Shown here in pieces: positions 470 through 14,077 of a stretch of 20,000 bases of DNA; position 1 is the stretch's first letter, and each line of letters opens with the position of its first letter. The notes below the pieces were generated by a model, which ran no database searches, was not told the origin of the DNA, and worked only from the letters and a program-made list of their open reading frames with translations. Source of the DNA: an uncultured Candidatus Sumerlaeota bacterium (GTDB lineage Bacteria; CAYMEV01); NCBI GenBank assembly GCA_964389675.1, contig CAYMEV010000018.1, positions 59,564 through 79,563 of the forward strand, written 5' to 3'. Both the position numbers and the translations under genes were made by a program.

Positions 470-2050
470 TTGGATTATAAAGAAACAATACTACTGGTTG
501 ATGATGAAAAAGATATCAGGGATACCCTTTCTGAAATACTGCTGATGAAAGGCTATAAATCCATAGCCTGTTCGAACGGACACGAAGCGGTTGAAAAATT
601 CAAGGATAAAAGCAATAATATAGGCATAGTAATAACTGATATTAATATGCCCAAAATAAGCGGACTGGAGCTGTTAAAGATCCTTAACGGGATTGATGAC
701 ACGATAATAGCCATAATAATCACTGCATATGCAACCAGGGATGCAGCTATCGAAGCACTTAAATACGGTGCATATGATTTTATAAAAAAGCCTTTCAATA
801 TTGTTGAGCTGACTTTGATCCTCAAGAGAGCTGTTGAGAAGAGACAGCTCATACTCCAGAATACAGAGTATCAGAAGCACCTTGAGGACATGGTAAAGAT
901 AAGGACCCAGCAGATAGAAGAGCTTAACCTCTACCTGGGCGACCTTAATAAGCTGGGTATTGAAAACAGGAAGGACATACTCCTTTCTTCAAAGCTGATG
1001 AACGTCAACAGTTTTATAAGGGCAAATTTCAATGCAGACAGCTATGCATTGTTAGTATATGACAGGAGCAATGATAAATTCACCACTTATCTGCATAATA
1101 TTGAAGATGAAAACCTGAAGCTTGATTTTGATAATGAGGCACAGGAAAAATTCCTTGAAATGCTTAACATAAACATCTCATCATCACTCCTGGTCTATAA
1201 TGAATCTGATCCTGAAATAGAGAACAGCAGGATATTCGCCTTTGATAAAAAAATCTATATTTTCCCTTTCAGCAAGGACATATATACCGGGTGCGTCTAT
1301 CTTGGCTTTTATAAGACAAAGCCAAAACTGGAGATTGACACTATGCTGAAACCCATGCTCAGGGAGCTTGAATCAGCACTTGAGAACAATTACCTGGTTC
1401 AGAAGCACAATGAGGAGCTTAAAAGAATGTTCCTCTCCTCTGTCCAGACTCATGCACACACCATAGAGGCCAAGGACCCCTATACAAAAGGGCACTGCAA
1501 CAGGGTCGAGATATACTCACAGCTTATAGCGATAGAGCTGAACATGTCAGAAGAAGAAAGGTTTGAACTGCAGATCGCATGCCTGCTTCACGATATAGGC
1601 AAGATAGGGGTAAGTGAGAGGATACTGTCCAAACCCTCAAAGCTGACCGAGGAAGAGATGGATCAGATGAAGCTTCATCCAGTTATCGGGGGAGAAATAG
1701 TCAAGGACCTTTATGGCTTCAATATTGCACCTATAATTAAGCATCACCATGAAAGGTATGACGGCAGGGGTTATCCTGAAGGCCTTGCCGGTGAGAATAT
1801 CCCTCTTGGTGCAAGGATAATAGCCGTAGCTGATACATTTGATGCAATGACATCAGACAGGCCTTACAGAAAGAGCCTTTCAAAGGATATCGCAGTAAAT
1901 GAACTGATCATATTCAAAGGAAAGCAGTTCGACCCCTTTATCGTCGATGCTTTTCTCAAAAACCCGGAAAAGATCGAAAAACTTCACAATAACCTTAAGA
2001 AAATGAGATTCAATCAGCTGACTTCACTGATAACATGCTCGGAAATCTGA
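470..2050 (+). CDS. Response regulator: N-terminal receiver, degenerate GAF-like middle region, C-terminal HD-GYP domain (putative cyclic di-nucleotide phosphodiesterase)
   Basis: REC motifs are intact (LVDDE, ITDINMP, IITAY, KKPF). HD-GYP motifs present: KDPYTKGHCNRV, LLHDIGKIG, HHHERYDGRGYP, IAVADTFDAMTSDRPYR. TTG start. Confidence 0.92.
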   Translation: MDYKETILLVDDEKDIRDTLSEILLMKGYKSIACSNGHEAVEKFKDKSNNIGIVITDINMPKISGLELLKILNGIDDTIIAIIITAYATRDAAIEALKYGAYDFIKKPFNIVELTLILKRAVEKRQLILQNTEYQKHLEDMVKIRTQQIEELNLYLGDLNKLGIENRKDILLSSKLMNVNSFIRANFNADSYALLVYDRSNDKFTTYLHNIEDENLKLDFDNEAQEKFLEMLNINISSSLLVYNESDPEIENSRIFAFDKKIYIFPFSKDIYTGCVYLGFYKTKPKLEIDTMLKPMLRELESALENNYLVQKHNEELKRMFLSSVQTHAHTIEAKDPYTKGHCNRVEIYSQLIAIELNMSEEERFELQIACLLHDIGKIGVSERILSKPSKLTEEEMDQMKLHPVIGGEIVKDLYGFNIAPIIKHHHERYDGRGYPEGLAGENIPLGARIIAVADTFDAMTSDRPYRKSLSKDIAVNELIIFKGKQFDPFIVDAFLKNPEKIEKLHNNLKKMRFNQLTSLITCSEI

Positions 2051-2152: not shown

Positions 2153-2617
2153 ATGCTCAAAGAAGGGACTAAAGCACCTGATTTCAAATTGATGGGTCAT
2201 GATGGGGAAGACATCTCCCTTAAAGATTTTTCAGGCAGGAAGGTCGTTCTCTATTTTTACCCCAAGGATAATACACCGGGCTGCACAAAAGAGGCATGCA
2301 GCATAAGGGATGTTTATGATGATATACTTGATGCCGGGGCCGTGGTCCTTGGGATAAGCAAGGACAAGCCTGATTCGCATGTTAAATTCAGAAGGAAGTT
2401 CAGCCTTCCCTTTTACCTGCTGAGCGATCCTGAAGCCAAGGTCATTGAAGCATACCAGGCATGGAAGAAAAAGACCATGTTCGGAAAAAGCTTCATGGGT
2501 ATCCTGCGGTGCACATATATAATTGATGAAGAAGGGATAATCATAAAAAGCTTTCCCAAAGTCAGGCCGGATGAACATGGCAGAGAGATACTTGAATTTT
2601 TGAAAAGCAGTCTGTGA
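2153..2617 (+). CDS. bcp: Thioredoxin-dependent thiol peroxidase (BCP/PrxQ peroxiredoxin)
   Basis: APDF and FYPKDNTPGCTKEAC (PxxxTxxC with CxxxxC resolving Cys). Strong AAGGAGG RBS just upstream. Confidence 0.95.
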   Translation: MLKEGTKAPDFKLMGHDGEDISLKDFSGRKVVLYFYPKDNTPGCTKEACSIRDVYDDILDAGAVVLGISKDKPDSHVKFRRKFSLPFYLLSDPEAKVIEAYQAWKKKTMFGKSFMGILRCTYIIDEEGIIIKSFPKVRPDEHGREILEFLKSSL

Positions 2618-2685
2618 CAGCAGGGCATAAACTGGATAAAGGGTATATCTTCAGCCGTCAAACCCAGGCAGTATCAATCATAAAA

Positions 2686-3537
2686 TCAGGACTGATACCA
2701 GATAAGCCAGCCCTTCCTGAGCCAGGACCTGCTGAGATTGATCCTGTAGCCATCTCCTGCCAGTTTTCTGGCTGAAGCCTCAAACCACTGGCGCCTGCCC
2801 CAGATGTCATGAACCCTTGTGCTTAAAGCGGACTTTTCCCATGCACTCAGGAAATCACCTGCTGATTCACCCCTGACTGCCCTGTGTATATGATTCTTCG
2901 GCAATACAGACCTGAAATCGGAAGGATTAAAGCCCTGCACAAAGTTTGTGCTGAAGATAACAGCTTCATATTTCCATCCCCCTTCCTTTCTTCTCCTCAT
3001 AAGATTAGCTGACCATATGCGCCCGAGCGGATCTGAAGTACCCTCAATCAGCAGGCCTCCCGGAAGGACCGGTTCAGCCATAAGTGCATATGCATCCCGG
3101 ACAAGGCACTCATCATACTGCCTTAGAACATTAAAGGCCCTTATCATCCGTACCCTTTCATAAGTGCCGTCTTCCCCAGGCCTAAGCGGGACATTGAAAC
3201 CTCCCAGGCGGAACTCTACATACTGATCTGCATAGGCAAGGGCTGATCTTACCCTCTCATGACTGATCTCCACCCCTATTATGCGAAGCCTGCTGTTCAG
3301 CCTCCTGAGCCTGCATGATGTCTCCACAGTGGTTTTGGGAGAATCCCCATACCCCAGGTCAATAAAGCAGGACCCTCCAAAAACCCCGTCTTCCCTCATT
3401 ATAAGCCCTGGATCATATCTGCAGAGAAAGTGATCCACCCTTCTTAATCTGTTTACGGCAGTCTTACCCCTCGTAATACCCCCGGCAGGCCTTCCGGGCC
3501 TGCCTGTCCCCACCTTTTTTATCCTTTTCTTATCCAC
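2686..3537 (-). CDS. Putative class I SAM-dependent methyltransferase-like protein of unknown substrate
   Basis: Motif-I-like IDLGYGDSP, acidic residue after strand 2 (IIGVEIS), and RAFNVLRQY and PGGLLIEG segments. GTG start is uncertain. Confidence 0.65.
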   Translation of the reverse strand: MDKKRIKKVGTGRPGRPAGGITRGKTAVNRLRRVDHFLCRYDPGLIMREDGVFGGSCFIDLGYGDSPKTTVETSCRLRRLNSRLRIIGVEISHERVRSALAYADQYVEFRLGGFNVPLRPGEDGTYERVRMIRAFNVLRQYDECLVRDAYALMAEPVLPGGLLIEGTSDPLGRIWSANLMRRRKEGGWKYEAVIFSTNFVQGFNPSDFRSVLPKNHIHRAVRGESAGDFLSAWEKSALSTRVHDIWGRRQWFEASARKLAGDGYRINLSRSWLRKGWLIWYQS

Positions 3538-3674
3538 AGCAATTCTCTTTATCAGCCGGTATTTTGGTCTGAGGATGCTAAACGCTTATCCAGGAGAAAT
3601 AGATATTAAGGATTTCTGTCTTTTATTCAAGATTTAAATCAGGTATGGCATACAGCTTTAATGGAGGCGGGAAT

Positions 3675-5978
3675 TCAGTCTTCAGTGCCGAGATTGATCA
3701 TCTTGTGGTCCCTGAGATAATCCTTGAAGGATACCTTCTTAAGGTTTGAAAGCCTCTCTACAATATCCTTCATCTTTCCGAGGCTTGAGAGGATTCTTTC
3801 TACATATTCCATGTTCTGCGGAGCTGTCATCTTTATCAGTTCGGCATTTATGCTGGCCGTTGTAAGAGGGTTGTTCAGTTCATGGGATATGCTCGCTATC
3901 ATGGCTTTTACAGTCTCAATCTTTTCTATTTCCAGTATATGCTGTTTAAGCAGGCTGTTCTCAAGGCTGTGTATCATTCTTAGCTCCAGCTCTTCAAGCT
4001 TGAATGGAACAAACATGATATCGTCGATACCTGACCCGAATATCTCTCTTGAAATATTCTTTGAGCTGCACATGAGTATGATCGGGCAGTCCTTCTTCTC
4101 CTTGATGGCTTTAATAAGCTCTATGTTTTTCGGATTGTCCTCCACAATACCATAATCAAGAAGTATTATATTCGGGTCATAGGCCTGTGTCTTCTCAATA
4201 ATATCAGATATCAGATAAACCTCTGATACATCAAATCCGATCAGCTTCACATAGTCCTTTATAAGCTTGAAATACTCAGTATCCTTCTTGAAGAAGACAA
4301 GCACCCTGTTCTGGTCCTTTTCGATATAGGTCCTGAACTTGGGTTCAAATTTATAAACAAGGTTGACCGTTTCCTCAGAGCTTACAGATGCCAGGCTCTG
4401 TGAGAACAATATGGACATTTTGCCCTTCCTGTCCCTTTGCCTTGAAAAAGAGATCTTATTCCTCAGCATATCTGAATAGGACTTGACATCGAGCATGACC
4501 TTCTCATCAAGAAAATCGTTTAAGGACCTTTCCTCCAGAAAAATAGGGCCATTGACATACTCTATATCAAGGGCGAATTTCCTTTCATCAAGCTTCAGGG
4601 TTATCTCAGCGCCATCTTCAAGAATATCAACAATATTATATAAAATCTCTGATATAACCTCTTTTATATAGCTGAAATCTCCCTTTATATACAGCTTCTT
4701 ATTTGCAGGCCTTTTGAAGAACACCTTTATATCCTTAAGGTATGCATACGGGAAAATATTTTTGTATATCTCTGATACCAGGCTGGTAATATTTATATCA
4801 TAAGATTCAAATACCGGTGCATCCAGAGCAGGAAGTTCAGCCTTTATAAGCTCAGAGATTATGTTTTTCAGCTCATTGTGCATTGTGCCCAGCAATGTAT
4901 GAAGATCGCTGTTATTTTGGACCGTTTCGGTCTCCAGGAGATCTGCTATGCCCTGAAGGGGATCATCAAGGCCCTCTTTCAGGTGGCTGAGGAGGCGGTT
5001 CTTATAAAGCTCGAAATTCTTGCTCACCTTATCCCTGTAGTACCTGTCTTTCTGCTTGATTGTCTTTGTATAATAATTTGAATTGTTTATGGCAATGGCC
5101 GCAATACTGGCTATTGATTCAAAGAACCCGATGTCTTCCTTATTGAACACACCTGCTTTTTCACGATGGTCCAGATATATAATGCCCAGTATATTGTCCT
5201 TTGACTTGACCGGTGATGCAAGAACTGACCTTATCCTTGAGGCAATGACGGACTCACTGTCTATGGTCTTGTCGATCATTGCATCTTCAATAAGTATGGT
5301 TTTCTTTTCAGCCTGTACTTTTTCAATAATGACACGGCTCATTGAAAAGCTGGTCTTTGTCTGAATCTCTCTTTCTATCTTATGGGCAGTAAGGGGCATA
5401 AGTATGTCCTCCGGCAGTTTGTTAATAAGGATTGCACCCCTTTCAGAACCCATGATCTCCATGACCTTGTTCAGCAGCTTATCAAGAATATCCTCAAGAT
5501 CCCAGCTTGAATTTATTATACCTATAAACTGGTATATGCTGTTGAGTTTCTTTATGATATCAAGCACTTCCTCCCTGAGTATATTGAAATCCCTGCATGA
5601 CTGGTCTTTTGTAATTGCATCAAGATGCTCTCTTAAATTCAGGGTTATAAGGTCTGTATGCGTTTCAACCCCTGAATTCTCAATAATGGGAGGATTATCC
5701 AGCACATCAAAAACATATCTTCCAACCTCGACAATGTCTCCGTTTTTAAGCTTCGCTTTTTTGTTGATCCGTATATCATTCACATATACGCCGTTTTTGC
5801 TTTCCAGGTCACTGATGATCAGGTTTCCATTCTCGTTCTGCAGGATTGTATGCTTTCTGGATATCTCAAGGTCATTCAGAATAATATCGCATTCTTTTGA
5901 CCTGCCTATGGAGACAGGCTTGTTCTTTATTTCGTAAATCTTGTTTGAGGATTTTTCATAAATATACATATTATCCAA
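3675..5978 (-). CDS. Multidomain signalling protein: FHA - GAF - degenerate HisKA/HATPase - atypical receiver - C-terminal HisKA (DHp) with no ATPase domain after it
   Basis: FHA motifs IGR, SRKH, SKNG. GAF motifs ERGAIL, IRSVLASPV, GIIYLD, F..EDI. N-box-like GDFSYIKEVISEILYN. REC-like PNIILLD...CPIILM...GIDDIMFVPF. H-box SISHELNNPL at His699 of 767. Confidence 0.85.
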   Translation of the reverse strand: MDNMYIYEKSSNKIYEIKNKPVSIGRSKECDIILNDLEISRKHTILQNENGNLIISDLESKNGVYVNDIRINKKAKLKNGDIVEVGRYVFDVLDNPPIIENSGVETHTDLITLNLREHLDAITKDQSCRDFNILREEVLDIIKKLNSIYQFIGIINSSWDLEDILDKLLNKVMEIMGSERGAILINKLPEDILMPLTAHKIEREIQTKTSFSMSRVIIEKVQAEKKTILIEDAMIDKTIDSESVIASRIRSVLASPVKSKDNILGIIYLDHREKAGVFNKEDIGFFESIASIAAIAINNSNYYTKTIKQKDRYYRDKVSKNFELYKNRLLSHLKEGLDDPLQGIADLLETETVQNNSDLHTLLGTMHNELKNIISELIKAELPALDAPVFESYDINITSLVSEIYKNIFPYAYLKDIKVFFKRPANKKLYIKGDFSYIKEVISEILYNIVDILEDGAEITLKLDERKFALDIEYVNGPIFLEERSLNDFLDEKVMLDVKSYSDMLRNKISFSRQRDRKGKMSILFSQSLASVSSEETVNLVYKFEPKFRTYIEKDQNRVLVFFKKDTEYFKLIKDYVKLIGFDVSEVYLISDIIEKTQAYDPNIILLDYGIVEDNPKNIELIKAIKEKKDCPIILMCSSKNISREIFGSGIDDIMFVPFKLEELELRMIHSLENSLLKQHILEIEKIETVKAMIASISHELNNPLTTASINAELIKMTAPQNMEYVERILSSLGKMKDIVERLSNLKKVSFKDYLRDHKMINLGTED

Positions 5979-6693
5979 TCACTTCTCTTATTTTTTTTAC
6001 CAGGGCCTGTTCACTTACCGGTTTTATAAGATAGCTGTCCACACCAAGGCGGACAGCCTTCAGTATATTTTCATAATCATTTTCTGCATCAAGTATGATA
6101 AATGGTATCCTTTTATATTCCTCATTGTTTTTTATTATCCTTAAAAGACTTAGACTGTCGTGCTTTCGGCTGTTATTGCTGTATAATATCATATCTGCCG
6201 CTTCCTTTCTGAGCCTGGTGAGGGCATCTAAACCGTCAAGCCCTGTATTGGCGTTGAATCCCACTTTATTAAGCATATCTGCAAGCTGGTTTCTCAAAGC
6301 TGTATTATGCTCTATAAGAAGTATGTTTTTCCTTTTTAACCTGCTTTTATCAGCCGGACAGCTATATTGCCTGAGTTTGATACCTATTCCCTTATTCTCC
6401 AGCTGGAGCTTTATATCCAGGGCATATCTCCTGTCTATACGTGAACACAGCTTAAAAGGCAATTCATCAGGCATCTCTGGACCCTGCAAGGATACAGCTG
6501 AATAAGGCCATTTGGCATAGTTTTTCACAGATTCACTCAGTATAAATGGGTCCTTACAGCTGACAACCAGAATATCAACTGGCTCAGCAATAAAAATTAC
6601 AGGGCTTCCGCATTCAGGGCATTTTGTGATATTATTCGCTATATCGCTTTCCCCGGTACTGAAACTGCATTCAATACAAACATAAATTCCCAT
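5971..6693 (-). CDS. Zn-ribbon protein with C-terminal aspartate-less (pseudo) receiver domain
   Basis: CIEC...CPEC at the N-terminus. REC fold at aa ~122-240 (NILLIEHN, DGLDAL, ADMILYS, IPFIIL, GVDSYLIKP). Overlaps the downstream gene by 8 nt. Confidence 0.8.
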   Translation of the reverse strand: MGIYVCIECSFSTGESDIANNITKCPECGSPVIFIAEPVDILVVSCKDPFILSESVKNYAKWPYSAVSLQGPEMPDELPFKLCSRIDRRYALDIKLQLENKGIGIKLRQYSCPADKSRLKRKNILLIEHNTALRNQLADMLNKVGFNANTGLDGLDALTRLRKEAADMILYSNNSRKHDSLSLLRIIKNNEEYKRIPFIILDAENDYENILKAVRLGVDSYLIKPVSEQALVKKIREVIG

Positions 6694-6722
6694 TTTAACT
6701 TCTTCCCTAAAGCCTGTTTATA

Positions 6723-6751
6723 AGAATAAATCCTTTCCTTATCTTTGTCAA
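6723..6751 (-). promoter_or_regulatory. sigma70-type promoter for the Zn-ribbon/pseudo-REC and FHA-GAF gene pair
   Basis: Minus strand reads TTGACA (6751-6746), 17 nt, TATTCT (6728-6723), about 30 nt upstream of the ATG at 6693. Confidence 0.7.
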
Positions 6752-6790
6752 TCTATAATTATTCAAAAAAATCAGGGTATCATGTGATAT

Positions 6791-9016
6791 TCAGTCAATA
6801 TCCCGAAGCTTGAAGCTCTGTATGAATTCAGTCTTTTTGAAAAGCTTGGCCAGTATATTATACTGGTAGATGGATGACAGTCTGAATAACAGCGTAATAG
6901 TGCTTGTCTCACCCTCATCCGCATGACTGACGCTCAGCAGGAGAATGTCTTCAAGCCTTTCAAGTGATTTGAGCAGTTTTTCAAGATTGCCTATCCTGTT
7001 TTCTGCAATAATAACTGCGGGAACATCAACATTTTTTTTATAACTGCCCCATTTTAGAGGGATGCATTCATTCGGTTCGGCAATATGCTTGATCCCTTCT
7101 TTATCCAGTCTATGCACATTTAGAAGATTGGACTCCCATACCCCTGTGATATATTCGCCTGGAAGAGGCTTGCATTTTATGCAGAAGGTAAGCTGGCCCT
7201 CTTCTATATCTTCAAGGTTTATTGACTGCTTGTCGAACAGCTTAAAAATGTTCTTGATCTTCCTGGGGATAAGAGACAGGGATTCATTCTCCGCAGCAAC
7301 ATTAAATTCATGAGCGGTATCTATCAGCCTATCAAGCATATAAGGGTCGTCAAGAAGCTTTTTGTATGTCTGGTCAGAATCATTCAGCCCTAATTTCTCC
7401 TCAGCCAGCTCCCAGAATCCTTCATTAAAAAGCACATCATCATTTATCCTGTTCAACTTCAGTTTTGTGGCAAGCTTCTCCCTTCCTTTGCTGACCAGCT
7501 GCATATAATCCTGCCTGTTAAACTGATGGACCAGTATATCCCTGGTAATACTCAGCTCAACCTCATCGATCCAGTCTTTCCTGATCACCAGCTCAGATTC
7601 CAGGGCTTTTATATCCGCCTTGTCATTATTTGACAGCCTGCTTGAGAGCTCTACCTCCCTTCCATTGACATAAGCTGTCATTTCAGGTATCTGATCATTA
7701 ATGCCAAGGTCATTCATTAAAACAAAAAGGTCAAGCACGGTAGAGTTCATCGGGATGATCAGGCTCTGGTTTTCACCTATGAATACGAGTATCTGGGGAG
7801 AGGATACAATATCTTCAAAAATCTTGTAGAATTCCTTTGTAGGCCTGATTGTCTGGACTTCCTTCAAAATCTTTGAAAAGCTGAGGAAAGAACCAAGTAT
7901 ATCCTTCTTTTTCTTTTTTATATTTATTGAAAAATCAGCCTTTTCCTGGATGCTTCTAAGCCTCAGGGCATTCTCCTCTTCACACCTGAATCCAATATTC
8001 ACCGTTCCGTAAGTATCTCCGATCTGAATGAAATGATCGAACATCTCATTTTCCCAGAAAGGGAACATTGGATTGGGCATATTCTGAAAGTGGTTTGTCA
8101 ATATGCCAAGTACCTTACCTATTTCTATCTTGCTTTCCACAGTTATGACAACATTAAGCTCCCTTACGATCTCTGACAGGATCAGCTCATCGAGGACTAT
8201 CGAATCATACTCTATATCCTCAGCCTTATCCTTCCTGAGATATTTCTTTAAAACAGAGAAAAGGTTCTTATTCCTCTTTTCAAGCCTGAGGATCTTTGTA
8301 CCGCTCTTTTTCAGCGCTTTGCTGAGGGTAATCTTAAAGTCCCTGTACTGGCTTTCTATATTTCCCACATGCCTGTCGACCAGGGCATCAAGCTGTCTGT
8401 ATATATCACGGTTCAGATAATAGAGGCAAAGATCCTCCATTTCCCTTGCTGCAAAATAAAGGCCCAGGACCTTGGTAAGAGGAATATACACAGAAAGGGT
8501 TTCAAGCGATATTTCAATTTGTTTTCTCTTAGGCATATTGCCAAGTGTCCTGAGATTATGCATTCTGTCAGCTATCTTTACCAGAATAACCCTTATATCC
8601 CTGGAAGAGTGCAGAAACATCTTCTTCAGGCTTACTTCCTTTCTTTCATCCTTGGTGATCTCAGGAAGCTTCTCCTTTTTTGTGACGCCCTCTACAAGGT
8701 TATAGATCTCATCTCCAAAATCATCCCTGATAGTCTCCCTGAGCTCCTCCCTGCTGGAATCATCAACATCCTCAACCGTATCGTGCAGCAGGGCAGCTGC
8801 TATTGTTGTATTGTCAAGTCCCCACTCTGAAAGTATTATCGCAACACTGAGCGGGTGAAAGAAGTAGGGATTCCGGTCCTTTCTAAACTGGCCTTTGTGG
8901 CAGATATGGGCAAGGTTGTATGCCCTGTAAAGCACCTGCAGGTCGCTGTCAGGAAAGAATCTGGTATAATTGGCTATAATCTTTTCAAATAAATTTATAA
9001 AGGATTCTTTTATCAT
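6791..9016 (-). CDS. Long RelA/SpoT homologue (HD - degenerate SYNTH - TGS - helical - ZFD - ACT/RRM), probably hydrolase-only
   Basis: HD domain: HKGQFRK, PYFFHP, AALLHDTVED, VKIADRMHNLRTL. TGS: PMNSTVLD, AYVNGREVEL. ZFD-like: CIKCKPLPGE..VHR. ACT-like: IIAENRIGNL. Most synthetase motifs are missing. Confidence 0.88.
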   Translation of the reverse strand: MIKESFINLFEKIIANYTRFFPDSDLQVLYRAYNLAHICHKGQFRKDRNPYFFHPLSVAIILSEWGLDNTTIAAALLHDTVEDVDDSSREELRETIRDDFGDEIYNLVEGVTKKEKLPEITKDERKEVSLKKMFLHSSRDIRVILVKIADRMHNLRTLGNMPKRKQIEISLETLSVYIPLTKVLGLYFAAREMEDLCLYYLNRDIYRQLDALVDRHVGNIESQYRDFKITLSKALKKSGTKILRLEKRNKNLFSVLKKYLRKDKAEDIEYDSIVLDELILSEIVRELNVVITVESKIEIGKVLGILTNHFQNMPNPMFPFWENEMFDHFIQIGDTYGTVNIGFRCEEENALRLRSIQEKADFSINIKKKKKDILGSFLSFSKILKEVQTIRPTKEFYKIFEDIVSSPQILVFIGENQSLIIPMNSTVLDLFVLMNDLGINDQIPEMTAYVNGREVELSSRLSNNDKADIKALESELVIRKDWIDEVELSITRDILVHQFNRQDYMQLVSKGREKLATKLKLNRINDDVLFNEGFWELAEEKLGLNDSDQTYKKLLDDPYMLDRLIDTAHEFNVAAENESLSLIPRKIKNIFKLFDKQSINLEDIEEGQLTFCIKCKPLPGEYITGVWESNLLNVHRLDKEGIKHIAEPNECIPLKWGSYKKNVDVPAVIIAENRIGNLEKLLKSLERLEDILLLSVSHADEGETSTITLLFRLSSIYQYNILAKLFKKTEFIQSFKLRDID

Positions 9017-9052
9017 ATTATTTTTTCAGGGCAATCGTTCAGGATGAACCGG

Positions 9053-10960
9053 CTAAATTGCTTTTATTCCGTTATAGTCCTTTTTATGGAGAAGTATCTT
9101 GAGATTATCGGCTATTGACTGATAATCAATCCCGCTTTGCCTCAGCAGGTCTTCCCTTTTCCCGTGCTCGATGAATCTGTCAGGTATTGCAAGGATCCTT
9201 ATCATCCTGCCTGGTTTGTTTTTGCCTGCTATATAAGCATTGACAGCACTTCCGAAACCCCCGGTCAGCGAACCTTCTTCTACTGTCAGGACAGGTATGT
9301 TCTTCATAATTATCCAGTCCAGCAATTCAGAATCAAGCGGCTTTATAAACCTTGCATTGATCAGCATCGGGTTTGCTTTGCTGTCCTTGATCAGGTCAAA
9401 AGCCTTAAGGGATTCATTCACCATGCTTCCAACAGCAATAACAGCGATATTCGCATCTTCGGAGCCTCTTAGTATTTCCCATTTGCCTATAGGCAGCCTC
9501 TTTGGAAATTCGTCGTTCATGACACCGTTTGCACAGCCCCTCGGGTACCTTATGGAGCAGGGCCCTTTCTCAAAATAGGCTGTATAAAGGAGATCCTTCA
9601 GTTCATCTTCATCCTTGGGTGCCATGACAGTCATATTAGGAACCATATTCATAAAGCTGATGTCAAATACCCCGTGGTGCGTGGGGCCATCATCACCAAC
9701 CAGGCCGGCCCTGTCCATGCAGAAAACTACGGGAAGATTCTGAAGGGCAACATCATGAATGACCTGATCGACAGCTCTTTGCATAAATGTTGAATATATA
9801 GCAACATATGGTTTTTTTGCATCGGCAGCCAGCCCTGCGGCAAATGTAACAGCATGCCCTTCTGCTATACCTACATCAAAAAACCTGTCCGGGAATTTCT
9901 CGGCAAATTCTGTCAGGCCTGTTCCATCAAGCATTGCAGCTGATATTCCTATGATATCATTATATTTCTCACCAAGGAGCTTCATTGTAGTACCAAAAGC
10001 ACCTGAGTAGGAGATCGCGGAGCTTTTTCGTGTCTGACCGCTTTCTATGAGGAAAGGCTTGGAACTGTGAAATTCGGTGGGGCTTTCCTCAGCATACTGA
10101 TATCCCTTGCCCTTTTTCGTCAATATATGGAGTATATTTGGGCCTTTCAGGTTTTTAACATTATTGAATGTCTTTATCAGAGCGGGTATGTTATGCCCGT
10201 CAATTGGGCCTATATAACGGAATCCAAGCTCTTCGAATATGCTTCCAGGAAGTATTATGTTCTTCAGGCTTTCTTCAACCTTTTTTACGAATTTATAGAG
10301 TGTTTCTCCCTTTTCCGTAAATCCCTTCACCTTGTTCAGGAGCTCTGTCCTGACCCTGTTGTAGTACTTTCCTGTAATAAGATTATTGAGATACCTGGAC
10401 ATGGCCCCGACATTTTTTGATATGGACATCTCATTGTCATTAAGGACAACCGTAAAATCAATATTTGTGTGCCCGGAATTGTTCAGTGCTTCGTAAGCCA
10501 GGCCATTTGATATTGATCCGTCGCCTATTACAGCTATCACATTGTTCTTCTTCTCAATAAGGCTGCGGGATACGGCAAATCCGCAGGCAGCCGAAATGGA
10601 TGTACTTGAGTGCCCTGTACCGAAAACATCATATACGCTCTCAGACCTCTTGGGAAAACCTGAAAGCCCCTCGTACTGCCTGATAGTATGAAATTTGCGG
10701 TACCTGTTTGTAAGGATCTTATATGCATAGGACTGATGGCCTACATCCCATATTATCTTGTCAAAAGGAGGATTATAGCAGTACAGGAGAGCCAGGGTAA
10801 GTTCAACTACTCCAAGGCTTGACGCAAGATGCCCTCCATTTTTGCTTACAGTATTTATAATCAGGTCCCTTACTTCCTGAGCAAGCCCTGTCAGTTCCGG
10901 ACTGCTGAGAGATTTAATCCCGTCAGGAAAACTGGTCTCTTCAAGAATTTTATAATCCAT
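9053..10960 (-). CDS. dxs: 1-deoxy-D-xylulose-5-phosphate synthase
   Basis: GGHLASSLGVVEL, WDVGHQ, GTGHSSTSIS, ThDP motif GDGS...EALNN, DVGIAEGHAV, DRAGLVGDDGPTHHG, IRYPRG. Confidence 0.98.
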   Translation of the reverse strand: MDYKILEETSFPDGIKSLSSPELTGLAQEVRDLIINTVSKNGGHLASSLGVVELTLALLYCYNPPFDKIIWDVGHQSYAYKILTNRYRKFHTIRQYEGLSGFPKRSESVYDVFGTGHSSTSISAACGFAVSRSLIEKKNNVIAVIGDGSISNGLAYEALNNSGHTNIDFTVVLNDNEMSISKNVGAMSRYLNNLITGKYYNRVRTELLNKVKGFTEKGETLYKFVKKVEESLKNIILPGSIFEELGFRYIGPIDGHNIPALIKTFNNVKNLKGPNILHILTKKGKGYQYAEESPTEFHSSKPFLIESGQTRKSSAISYSGAFGTTMKLLGEKYNDIIGISAAMLDGTGLTEFAEKFPDRFFDVGIAEGHAVTFAAGLAADAKKPYVAIYSTFMQRAVDQVIHDVALQNLPVVFCMDRAGLVGDDGPTHHGVFDISFMNMVPNMTVMAPKDEDELKDLLYTAYFEKGPCSIRYPRGCANGVMNDEFPKRLPIGKWEILRGSEDANIAVIAVGSMVNESLKAFDLIKDSKANPMLINARFIKPLDSELLDWIIMKNIPVLTVEEGSLTGGFGSAVNAYIAGKNKPGRMIRILAIPDRFIEHGKREDLLRQSGIDYQSIADNLKILLHKKDYNGIKAI

Positions 10961-11911: not shown

Positions 11912-14077
11912 CTACATACCGAGGTTTGATTCGTCACCTGCAGCTAATATATCAATCAGGGCCTCATGGTAAAAATCACGGCTCTTCTTCACTGTTTCGC
12001 TCACTCTGCCGTCATAAAGGGCTCTTCCCCTGTCAATATGAACTTTTAAGAGCTGGTAGAGATTCTTGTTAAGACGGCCCTTCTTCACATCCTCTTCATA
12101 ATATAGCTTGATCTCGGATACTACAAGCCTGGCAAACCTCCTGGCCTCATCAAACAGGGTCTGCTCCTCCTCTGATAATTCTTCTTCCTCTGCTGCAGCC
12201 TCCTCTTTGACAGGCTGTTCTTTGATCTCTTCAGGTATGGGGCCGAGTTCACCCTCTATTTCACCCTCAATATCGTTTTCATCAAAACCCATATCATCCT
12301 CATCAAATTCGCTGTCCCTTATCTGCTGAGTCCTGTCCCCTGCATATCTGCCAGTCTCAGGTTCAGGCATTTCCTGCTCAATGTCCTCATCTGGCATGGA
12401 TTCTGCCTCTTCAAGCAATTCAGACGATTGCTCCTCCTCATAATCAAAATTATCCTCCTCCAGTACTTCCTCGTCAAATTCAGAATCCTCCCTGGGGATC
12501 GTCAGCTCATCTGTAATATCCCTCTTCTCTTTATTATCAGACCTGTCAATAAAACCTTCTTCCTCTGCTTCGGCTTCTGCTACATCTTCTTTTTCCTCAG
12601 CTTCACCCGCTATATCATCAGATTCTTCAAAATCCTCCTCCATCATCCCTGCTGCATCATCAATGTATATCTGCTCTGTCTCTCTGTCCAGCTCCTCTTC
12701 CTCTTCAACAAATGATCCGCTTTCTATTTCCTCTTCTGAAACCCCGTCTTCTTCTTCAATATCTTCTTCAGCCTGCAGTACTTCTGCCTCTGCTTCTGGT
12801 TCTGGTTCTTCCTCTTCAGCAAAAGGCCCGCTTTCCATTTCCTCTTCTGGAACCACGGCTTCTTCTTCAACATCTTCTTCAGCCTGCAGTATTTCCGCCT
12901 CTGCTTCTGGTTCTGGTTCTTCCTCTTCAGCAAAAGACCCGCTTTCTATTTCCTCTTCTGGAACCACGGCTCCTTCTTCAATATCTTCTTCAGCCTGCAG
13001 TATTTCCGCCTCTGCTTCTGGTTCTGGTTCTTCCTCTTCAGCAAAAGACCCGCTTTCTATTTCCTCTTCTGGAACCACGGCTCCTTCTTCAATATCTTCT
13101 TCAGCATGCAGTACTTCTGCCTCTTCTTCTGGTTCTGGTTCTTCCTGCAGGCCTTCCTGTATGCTTTCCCTGACCTCTTCCGGTTCATCCTTTTCAAACC
13201 TGTCCTGTTTAAGTATTGTCCTCTTCTGCAGCCTTTCTTCTGAATCCATATACTGTGTTATATCAAGAACAGGATAGTGAGGCTCGGTCTTTCTTTTTGC
13301 AAAAGTCAGCTCCATCTTCAGTTCTGCAGTGATAAGCAGGATGTCGAGAAGATGCGCATATTCCCATACATTTCTGTTGAATACGAAAACGGCAACGACC
13401 GTGCCCTTCAGAAGGATGGGGAATATTGAAACAGTATCATTTTTTTCAAAGCCCAGTGCTTCGAATATTGAAGCATCCTTATCCGGAACCGGCCCGATAT
13501 AAGGTGCTTTATTGTGATATACCCCGGTAATTATATTTTCCTCATCAAGGGCTATCTTCAAATTCTGGACCATGGGTTTTACCTCTGATGGCTCCTTATC
13601 CCTGACATAGCCCTCATAGCCGGCAAAACACCCTTGATTCCTGCGTTCAAGGAATAAAAAGACCTTATCTGAGATCGCTGTGCAGAAATTAAAGGCTTCC
13701 TTTACTATCTGGGGCTGACTGTCATACTGCTTTATTTCAGCAATAGCCTCCCTTAACAGTTTAATGTGGTCATAGGAGGAAAGAGGCCTCTGAACCTCAT
13801 ATGTGATATCATTCGTGATTTTCTTTCTTTTTATTATATCCCTGTTTATAACTGTTGTATATGACTGCCTGATCTCATCCTCCAAAGCCTTCATCCGTCC
13901 CTTTTCAACCAGGTCATCAATATTTGGACTGGAAATATTGCCTGTAATTTTTGTCCTGAGCAATGAGATTTTATCATCTATCTCTTCTATGGACTCAAGC
14001 AGATCGCTGAAGCCATTATTTGATTTATTCTGGATTTTATCGATAACTTGCTTTAATAAGCTGTAAACCTCCTGCAT
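11912..14077 (-). CDS. Hypothetical acidic protein: N-terminal helical region, GAF-like domain, Glu-rich repeat linker, C-terminal helical domain (EARRFARLVVSEIKLY)
   Basis: 721-aa ORF with GGAGG RBS. GAF-like strands (KVFLFL...SIFPILLKGTVVAVFVF). Long E/D-rich central region. Compact ~80-aa amphipathic C-terminal domain. Confidence 0.8.
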   Translation of the reverse strand: MQEVYSLLKQVIDKIQNKSNNGFSDLLESIEEIDDKISLLRTKITGNISSPNIDDLVEKGRMKALEDEIRQSYTTVINRDIIKRKKITNDITYEVQRPLSSYDHIKLLREAIAEIKQYDSQPQIVKEAFNFCTAISDKVFLFLERRNQGCFAGYEGYVRDKEPSEVKPMVQNLKIALDEENIITGVYHNKAPYIGPVPDKDASIFEALGFEKNDTVSIFPILLKGTVVAVFVFNRNVWEYAHLLDILLITAELKMELTFAKRKTEPHYPVLDITQYMDSEERLQKRTILKQDRFEKDEPEEVRESIQEGLQEEPEPEEEAEVLHAEEDIEEGAVVPEEEIESGSFAEEEEPEPEAEAEILQAEEDIEEGAVVPEEEIESGSFAEEEEPEPEAEAEILQAEEDVEEEAVVPEEEMESGPFAEEEEPEPEAEAEVLQAEEDIEEEDGVSEEEIESGSFVEEEEELDRETEQIYIDDAAGMMEEDFEESDDIAGEAEEKEDVAEAEAEEEGFIDRSDNKEKRDITDELTIPREDSEFDEEVLEEDNFDYEEEQSSELLEEAESMPDEDIEQEMPEPETGRYAGDRTQQIRDSEFDEDDMGFDENDIEGEIEGELGPIPEEIKEQPVKEEAAAEEEELSEEEQTLFDEARRFARLVVSEIKLYYEEDVKKGRLNKNLYQLLKVHIDRGRALYDGRVSETVKKSRDFYHEALIDILAAGDESNLGM
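12701..13144. repeat. Coding tandem repeat, 4 x 111 bp (37 aa; consensus EEPEPEAEAEILQAEEDIEEGAVVPEEEIESGSFAEE)
   Basis: The anchor GC(C/A)TGCAGTA recurs at 12771, 12882, 12993 and 13104, an exact 111-nt period. Copies differ by only a few substitutions. Confidence 0.95.

Follow-up and report, generated by a model that had tools for sequence, protein, structure and literature searches.

In a 20,000-nucleotide stretch of a contig from an uncultured Candidatus Sumerlaeota bacterium, referred to here as the window, two neighbouring genes on the minus strand encode a 240-residue protein and a large signalling protein. Both open reading frames (ORFs) are present within 3675-6693, in agreement with a preliminary description of this DNA. 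The large protein carries, in order, an FHA domain, a GAF domain, a degenerate histidine-kinase core made up of a dimerisation and histidine phosphotransfer (DHp) domain and a catalytic and ATP-binding (CA) domain, a pseudo-receiver and a C-terminal DHp of the HisKA type, after which no CA follows (Table 1). The best reading of this protein is a cytoplasmic, kinase-dead sensor that is limited to a small uncultured lineage. Its residues are numbered throughout as in the 767-residue form with a TTG start given by the ORF listing (3675-5978, minus strand). Six orthologues are known, namely this protein, from the 3.57-Mb source genome (G000), its counterpart in a sister genome of the same genus (G001, 72% identity), three sequences from public run assemblies (60-62%) and the protein P0017 (38%), and the column counts given below refer to these six sequences.

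Table 1. Genes, predicted domains and candidate sites at the locus, in window coordinates; residues of the large protein in 767-residue numbering.
Feature	Position	Strand	Details
Large signalling gene	3675..5969	minus	764 residues from the ATG at 5969; stop codon 3675-3677
FHA	5721..5915	minus	residues 22-86; Pfam PF00498, 68.2 bits (cut-off 20.7)
GAF	5088..5501	minus	residues 160-297; Pfam PF01590, 50.5 bits
Pseudo-DHp helical hairpin	4839..5078	minus	about residues 301-380; E335 at the phospho-His position
Pseudo-CA	4398..4811	minus	about residues 390-527; N448 kept, G1 reads VNGPI, ATP lid and G2 deleted
Pseudo-receiver	3975..4310	minus	about residues 557-668; K564-K565 for the acidic pair, D608 kept, V657 for the Lys
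Terminal HisKA DHp	3735..3953	minus	about residues 676-748; H699, E700 and N703 (H-E-x-x-N) intact; no CA after it
C-terminal tail	3678..3734	minus	19 residues after the DHp; end of the protein
240-residue gene	5971..6693	minus	zinc-ribbon-like CxxC...CxxC segment at 6595-6693; predicted Asp-less receiver, residues 124-236, at 5986-6324
Candidate sigma-70-like site	6723..6751	minus	TTGACA-17-TATTCT, upstream of the 240-residue gene; 10/12 matches

The FHA domain scores well above its Pfam cut-off, and residues G25, R26, S40, R41, H43, N62 and G63 are invariant in all six orthologues. Profile matches in the PDB connect this region to EmbR and GarA. With both the profile and the G-R, S-x-x-H and N residues of phosphothreonine (pThr) readers in place, the domain is predicted to bind pThr. 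Over the large protein as a whole, the PDB sequence-profile search matched FHA proteins, GAF proteins, receivers and one DHp, and returned nothing in residues 300-550. A full-length AlphaFold2 model built from a five-row alignment had a mean predicted local distance difference test (pLDDT) score of 45.8 and was usable in the FHA and receiver regions only.

The region between the GAF and the receiver is invisible to standard domain profiles. Residues 300-560 gave no Pfam match even at E <= 10, HATPase_c and HisKA included, the middle region searched alone returned nothing useful from Pfam or NCBIfam, and the large gene is absent among the 37 HATPase_c (PF02518) matches in its own genome. A middle-region profile of five orthologues, compared by hhalign with nine canonical DHp-CA cores encoded in G000, matched them with a probability of 84.5% (E 7e-6) over 148 columns that extend from the H-box to the N-box inclusive. 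Searched against 1.84 billion representatives at E <= 0.001, the middle-region profile returned 11 proteins: the protein itself, P0017 (E 8e-28) and nine kinases. In each of the nine, HATPase_c exceeds the Pfam cut-off and HisKA is matched as well (above the cut-off in eight), and the stretch aligned with the profile extends over HisKA and into the CA, as far as its first half. On the strength of the hhalign comparison and this profile search, we take the middle region to be homologous to histidine-kinase cores.

In a MAFFT alignment of the middle region with 11 canonical cores, the phospho-His is matched by E335, the N-box Asn by N448 and DxGxG, the G1 motif, by VNGPI; hhalign likewise aligns E335, within KEGLDDPL, with the phospho-His and N448 with the N-box Asn. 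Across the orthologues the His column reads E, D, E, E, E, Q and the G1 Asp column V, V, D, D, E, T, while the second Gly of G1 is replaced by Ile in five and by Ala in one. The N-box Asn, a ligand of Mg-ATP, is kept in five and is Ser in P0017. Relative to the 11 canonical cores, a gap of 23 columns at the ATP lid and GxGLG (G2) is present in every family member. The middle core (residues 301-527) is therefore best described by what it has lost, in that the His, G1, G2 with the ATP lid and the Pfam profiles of an autokinase are missing and the N-box Asn is retained, and it is predicted to be inactive as an autokinase. An AlphaFold2 model of the middle region (mean pLDDT 75, with 80-94 in the CA-like part) has helices at 301-348 and 357-379 and then an alpha/beta sandwich whose lid segment is very short, about 16 residues lying between strand and next helix at the lid position. 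Compared with the PDB by Foldseek, this model gave 342 matches at E <= 0.001, and the top matches are all kinase cores, including the plant phytochrome A kinase-related domain (2.6e-12), ZraS, DivL (4q20; 5e-10), CpxA, RetS and HK853.

The receiver that follows is matched by Pfam REC over residues 570-665 at 24.5 bits, below the cut-off of 30.2. In a phmmer alignment to solved receivers, the acidic pair corresponds to K564-K565, the phospho-Asp to D608 and the conserved Lys to V657. D608 is invariant, the acidic-pair column reads KK, RR, KK, KK, KK, HR, and the Lys position reads V, V, V, I, V, V. At the Thr/Ser position stands Cys or Ser, although the alignment there is uncertain. Receivers are defined in passages of PMC12632262 by five residues (DD, phospho-Asp, Thr/Ser and Lys), and under that definition the domain is an Asp-retaining pseudo-receiver.

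The terminal DHp presents a different picture. Pfam HisKA (PF00512) matches residues 692-748 at 51.1 bits, against a cut-off of 26.9, and H699, E700, N702, N703 and P704 are invariant in all six orthologues, each of which ends 19 residues past the DHp with no CA (HATPase_c) after it. The profile match, the His and the E/D-x-x-T/N motif are thus found together, as expected of a HisKA DHp, and the sequence would be compatible with a Spo0B/ChpT-like phosphotransferase, with an intact His and no working CA. It is also the most conserved domain of the protein, with 48% of its columns invariant, followed by the GAF (38%), the tail (32%), the pseudo-receiver (24%), the FHA (22%), the pseudo-CA (15%) and, as the least conserved, the pseudo-DHp (8%). 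The same trend is seen in the comparison with P0017, where the terminal DHp is 57% identical and the terminal 128 residues 60% identical, against 38% for the whole protein. The apparently live H-box is thus the most constrained part of the large protein. Because this sole intact H-box sits in the most conserved segment, H699 is probably still in use, and the large protein probably does more than scaffold protein interactions.

From the letters alone, the preliminary description had proposed an FHA with its pThr-binding residues followed by a GAF, an H-box (KEGLDDPL) with no His, an N-box-like segment without glycine boxes, a receiver that keeps Asp608 and lacks the acidic pair and the Lys, and an orphan C-terminal DHp. 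The profile matches and alignments bear out each of these assignments, and no intact G1 or G2 and no canonical H-box emerged from the hhalign and MAFFT alignments of the core.

Between G000 and G001 the proportion of non-synonymous differences (pN) is 0.08-0.30 and that of synonymous differences (pS) 0.63-0.86 in every domain; the synonymous rate (dS) is saturated, so that we give pN and pS and no dN/dS ratio. Because the defects are common to all six orthologues and pN is far below pS, the large protein appears to have been repurposed and not to be decaying, and the degenerate sites seem to be held under purifying selection. A decaying kinase was considered as an explanation and ruled out by the intact frames in six orthologues, the low pN relative to pS and the common defects. 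The earlier suggestion of a His-Asp scaffold repurposed as a protein-interaction or Ser/Thr-phosphorylation-responsive module can therefore be kept in part: the repurposing stands, whereas a role in interaction only is disfavoured by the intact H699 and by the terminal DHp being the most conserved domain.

The protein has a narrow distribution. Some match was found in 36 of the 41 genomes searched, and the full-length large protein in two, G000 and G001. The remaining 39 genomes are related to G000 only at domain level, which makes this lineage very isolated, and elsewhere the matches are confined to FHA, GAF or receiver segments; a region search with residues 640-767 returned the known orthologues only. 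We scanned the domains of six matching proteins from other genomes and from G000, and these comprised two FHA-GAF-adenylate/guanylate cyclases, one GAF-cyclase-PilZ protein without an FHA, one FHA-GAF-PP2C (SpoIIE) protein and two FHA-GAF-HD-GYP proteins. FHA-GAF thus precedes an enzymatic output in five of the six. FHA-GAF is on this evidence a portable input cassette, and the C-terminal part of the large protein would therefore be its output. The 37 Hanks-type Pkinase matches in the G000 genome, which mostly lie in open frames of about 1100-1360 residues, should be ample sources of pThr. Many other FHA proteins are encoded in this genome, and one paralogue, a 591-residue FHA-GAF-adenylate/guanylate cyclase (L029, G000:C41), adjoins a Hanks-type kinase on contig 41.

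We tentatively favour a model in which the terminal DHp, gated by the sensory domains, acts on a response regulator, either removing its phosphate or exchanging phosphate with it. The large protein would be unable to phosphorylate itself with ATP, as deletion of the ATP lid and G2 would preclude ATP use through its own CA. The dead core and the pseudo-receiver would instead form a dimeric scaffold and transmission module, and the terminal DHp, as the output, would dock the response regulator. It would then either dephosphorylate the regulator through the intact E-x-x-N motif or shuttle phosphoryl groups as a His-phosphotransfer station, with its activity switched by pThr on the FHA and a ligand on the GAF. 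Passages of PMC7005713 report that HK853 without its CA keeps phosphatase activity in vitro, and passages of PMC12963549 tie the D/E-x-x-T/N motif to HisKA phosphatase activity.

Several observations weigh against this model. The N-box Asn persists in all orthologues but one, and the Asp of G1 in two of them, which leaves some room for weak or non-canonical nucleotide binding. The structural model of the middle region is biased, since 11 of the 17 rows in its alignment are canonical kinases and it leans to the kinase fold as a result. No cognate regulator was identified, and the neighbourhood of the large gene gives no clue, since the gene is carried by only one other genome, in which the whole region is syntenic. 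The conservation of H699 could reflect structure or partner binding, not chemistry. Finally, we know of no natural DHp-only phosphatase.

A more ambitious and rather doubtful extension of the gated-DHp model is that the protein represents a new class of His-Asp node without a kinase, in which the dead core and pseudo-receiver present a second, live DHp whose phosphatase or phosphotransfer activity toward the regulators of other systems is switched by pThr and a small ligand. If this were true, such a node would wire the unusually large set of Hanks-type kinases in this lineage directly into two-component signalling.

The rival that survives best, although we consider it unlikely, is that all His-Asp chemistry has been lost and that the protein is a pure scaffold, in which the terminal DHp only dimerises or docks, in the style of DivL or PsmA, and the FHA recruits the protein to pThr-marked partners. 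Three of the four two-component modules are catalytically degenerate, the pseudo-CA carries a conserved surface patch, SEIYKNIFPYAYLKDIKVF, and pseudo-kinases such as PsmA are described in passages of PMC12963549 as acting without phosphorelay. The loss of all chemistry sits poorly, however, with the single intact H-box, H-E-L-N-N-P, which is part of the most conserved domain and unchanged in six of six orthologues; PsmA, by contrast, has a variable residue at the His position and no phosphatase motif in the account given in those passages.

It is improbable, in our estimate, that H699 of the orphan DHp is phosphorylated by the CA of another protein, through heterodimerisation or docking, and so becomes a true phosphodonor. 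The DHp is intact in a chain without a CA for it, and the genome offers 37 HATPase_c matches from which a donor could come. One of these possibilities is a 393-residue ORF elsewhere in the genome (L022, G000:C9:78294-81617), a DivL-like protein with the order REC-HisKA-HATPase_c, in which the H-box reads SYNLKTPL, with Tyr for His, and the CA scores 89.9 bits. This protein has what the large protein lacks, and it complements the orphan DHp in that the CA is present and the His absent. The Tyr recurs in its G001 orthologue, at 90% identity, with one in-frame TGA within the match. In the extended model of a kinase-less node, too, a protein of this type, with a competent CA but no His, might load the terminal DHp in trans. 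The idea is entirely speculative, however: no co-localised CA-only gene was seen, and in its own genome the C-terminal 213 residues match only a receiver (E 1.2e-4), with no paralogue that has a similar DHp.

We give slightly less credence still to the proposal of the preliminary description that the two genes form a dedicated pseudo-two-component system, in which the 240-residue protein is the partner of the large one. The genes lie on the same strand, and at their junction the TAA of the 240-residue gene is followed by one base and then the ATG of the large gene, so that stop and start are one base apart. This ATG at 5969 is the start that matches all five other orthologues, which begin MYI or MYV, and the 764-residue database copy. 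Because ATG 5969 and not TTG 5978 fits these sequences, the two genes are most likely tightly coupled without overlap, and the 8-nucleotide overlap that had been described would need the unlikely TTG. The partner protein also has a bona fide receiver fold, with Pfam REC matching residues 124-236 at 51.2 bits, and otherwise weak zinc-ribbon matches only. In an alignment with E. coli CheY, E128-H129 stand for the acidic pair, S172 for the phospho-Asp, as had been read from the sequence earlier, and an Asp for the Thr, while K224 is kept; the domain is an aspartate-less receiver.

Despite these features, the 240-residue gene is missing from G001, where synteny extends upstream through DXS, a polyprenyl synthase and the RelA/SpoT-like gene, and downstream through a gene for 283 or 286 residues, Bcp and an ORF that matches the REC-HD-GYP gene of the window in size and position. 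In G001 the RelA/SpoT-like gene ends 152 nucleotides before the ATG of the large orthologue, and no ORF lies between them. Searched against the whole G001 genome, the 240-residue protein found generic receivers only, the best at 26% identity over residues 122-235. A scan of JGI metagenomes yielded two loci, both of the G001 type, and a scan of genome contigs yielded G001 alone. The metagenome contig L030 has the same partner-less arrangement, although it is not independent evidence because its spacer is identical to that of G001, and the metagenome locus L031 is uninformative, its contig being cut inside the gene. No partner-like protein turned up for the three orthologues of about 60% identity, which lie on contigs of 15-19 kb whose contexts were not read directly. 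Among 5.8 billion protein clusters there was no full-length homologue of the 240-residue protein; six proteins were found at E <= 0.001, and the non-self matches are receiver-only, with 29-39% identity over 38-55% of the query. The pairing had been made to depend on the co-occurrence of the two genes elsewhere, and it fails on this point because they do not co-occur in G001, in L030 or among the 5.8 billion clusters. A predicted complex of the 240-residue protein's receiver (residues 116-240) with two copies of the terminal DHp scored 0.00, a value obtained without controls that speaks neither for nor against binding. We infer that the 240-residue gene is a recent, species-confined addition, which would be at most a local modulator and not a conserved partner.

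The preliminary description had also given the two genes a consensus promoter of their own. The sigma-70-like site does exist (Table 1), but sites with 10/12 matches number 26 in 2400-9300, compared with 15.0 +/- 3.9 in shuffled sequence, so that a match of this kind falls within chance, and between G000 and G001 the intergenic sequence upstream does not align. A promoter at this site is possible and not demonstrated, and the match is indistinguishable from chance.

Least probable of all, and in our judgement very improbable, is that the degenerate CA acts as a cryptic autokinase, with non-canonical ATP binding and H699 as its target, for although the N-box Asn is present in five of six orthologues and an acidic residue occupies the G1 Asp position in three, the ATP lid and G2 are deleted in all six, no HATPase_c signal is seen at E <= 10 and a receiver intervenes between the CA and the DHp.

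The combined architecture of the large protein was not found in searches of open-access literature on pseudo-histidine-kinases, FHA/GAF kinases and pseudo-receivers, although parts of it have parallels. The closest analogue of the middle core is PsmA of Streptomyces, which, in passages of PMC12963549, also has a Glu at the His position that varies among orthologues and a receiver after the core. The same passages describe a CA in which the ATP motifs are not conserved and the lid is incompatible with ATP binding, and a function that does not depend on the canonical relay. As described there, PsmA has no FHA-GAF and no second intact DHp, and its H-box is without the D/E-x-x-T/N motif, whereas the large protein has all of these. 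The likeness between the two is shown at the level of domain families only.

The middle region is also structurally matched to DivL of Caulobacter, as noted above. DivL is a pseudokinase with Tyr for His, in which the DHp-CA is reused as a signal-receiving scaffold; it has a recognisable CA with glycine boxes and PAS inputs, and no FHA, receiver or extra DHp. A dead kinase core and a live His-phosphotransfer site are found in one chain in RcsD (YojN), which serves the receivers of other proteins. The large protein shares with RcsD this logic of a dead core and one live phosphotransfer His, but the domains differ, as the live site of RcsD is a four-helix HPt domain and not a HisKA DHp, and RcsD is a membrane protein with no FHA, GAF or receiver. 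Spo0B and ChpT have a DHp with a phosphorylatable His and no autokinase activity, beside an ATP-blind CA-like domain, and lack sensory inputs. Their pseudo-CA follows the live DHp, whereas that of the large protein belongs to a separate, dead DHp with the pseudo-receiver in between. EspA of Myxococcus resembles the large protein in having an FHA before a His-kinase-type transmitter. It is an active kinase, has PAS and not GAF, and links a Ser/Thr kinase to two-component signalling. The EspA model NF052573 matches the FHA only (residues 12-87), at 44.4 bits, which falls short of the whole-protein cut-off of 1400 for an FHA histidine kinase of the EspA type. An internal pseudo-receiver that contacts and gates the HisKA of the same protein is described for ShkA and CikA in passages of PMC12632262; these proteins have a functional CA, whereas the pseudo-receiver of the large protein precedes a CA-less DHp.

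Pseudo-kinases and pseudo-receivers are already known, with mechanisms that passages of PMC12632262 present as mostly unclear, and the large protein is new within this known class of two-component pseudo-enzymes. In a single chain with a pThr reader at the front, it carries one module twice, dead and then live, and offers a compact natural test case for the role of a DHp without a CA, for why a degenerate core is retained and for Ser/Thr phosphorylation as an input to His-Asp signalling. With only six known orthologues, none of them from a cultured organism, the reach of the finding is limited, and any insight it offers would be mechanistic and not broadly biological.

Other genes in the neighbourhood were also of note. 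Downstream of the large gene lies a gene for 283 residues (window 2686-3537, minus strand), which was found in two of the 41 genomes, G000 and G001, and whose product has no sequence match in Pfam, NCBIfam or the PDB. In G001 its counterpart starts 30 nucleotides after the large gene, and the 283-residue gene may be co-transcribed with the large gene. A protein-atlas feature search led from this protein to unannotated methyltransferase-like clusters, which we treat as a lead only. Further on, 1.6 kb from the large gene and on the opposite strand, is a REC-HD-GYP response regulator (window 470-2050, plus strand); the ORF of matching size and position in G001 has 527 residues, and its domains were not scanned.

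Directly upstream of the 240-residue gene, a 741-residue RelA/SpoT homologue (RSH) is encoded at window 6791-9016 on the minus strand, with a strong match to the HD_4 hydrolase domain (121 bits). No RelA_SpoT synthetase, TGS or ACT was detected in it by Pfam at E <= 1, and it was not matched in a genome search with PF04607. A second RSH with an intact synthetase (124 bits) is found on the same contig (G000:C18:40449-40775). The 741-residue protein may be a long RSH that is hydrolase-only or has a pseudo-synthetase. A 721-residue ORF with no Pfam match occupies window 11912-14077 on the minus strand, and within it 12001-13000 is the most skewed part of the window, with a GC skew of -0.40 and an AT skew of -0.30. 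This skew may reflect a low-complexity or repetitive protein.

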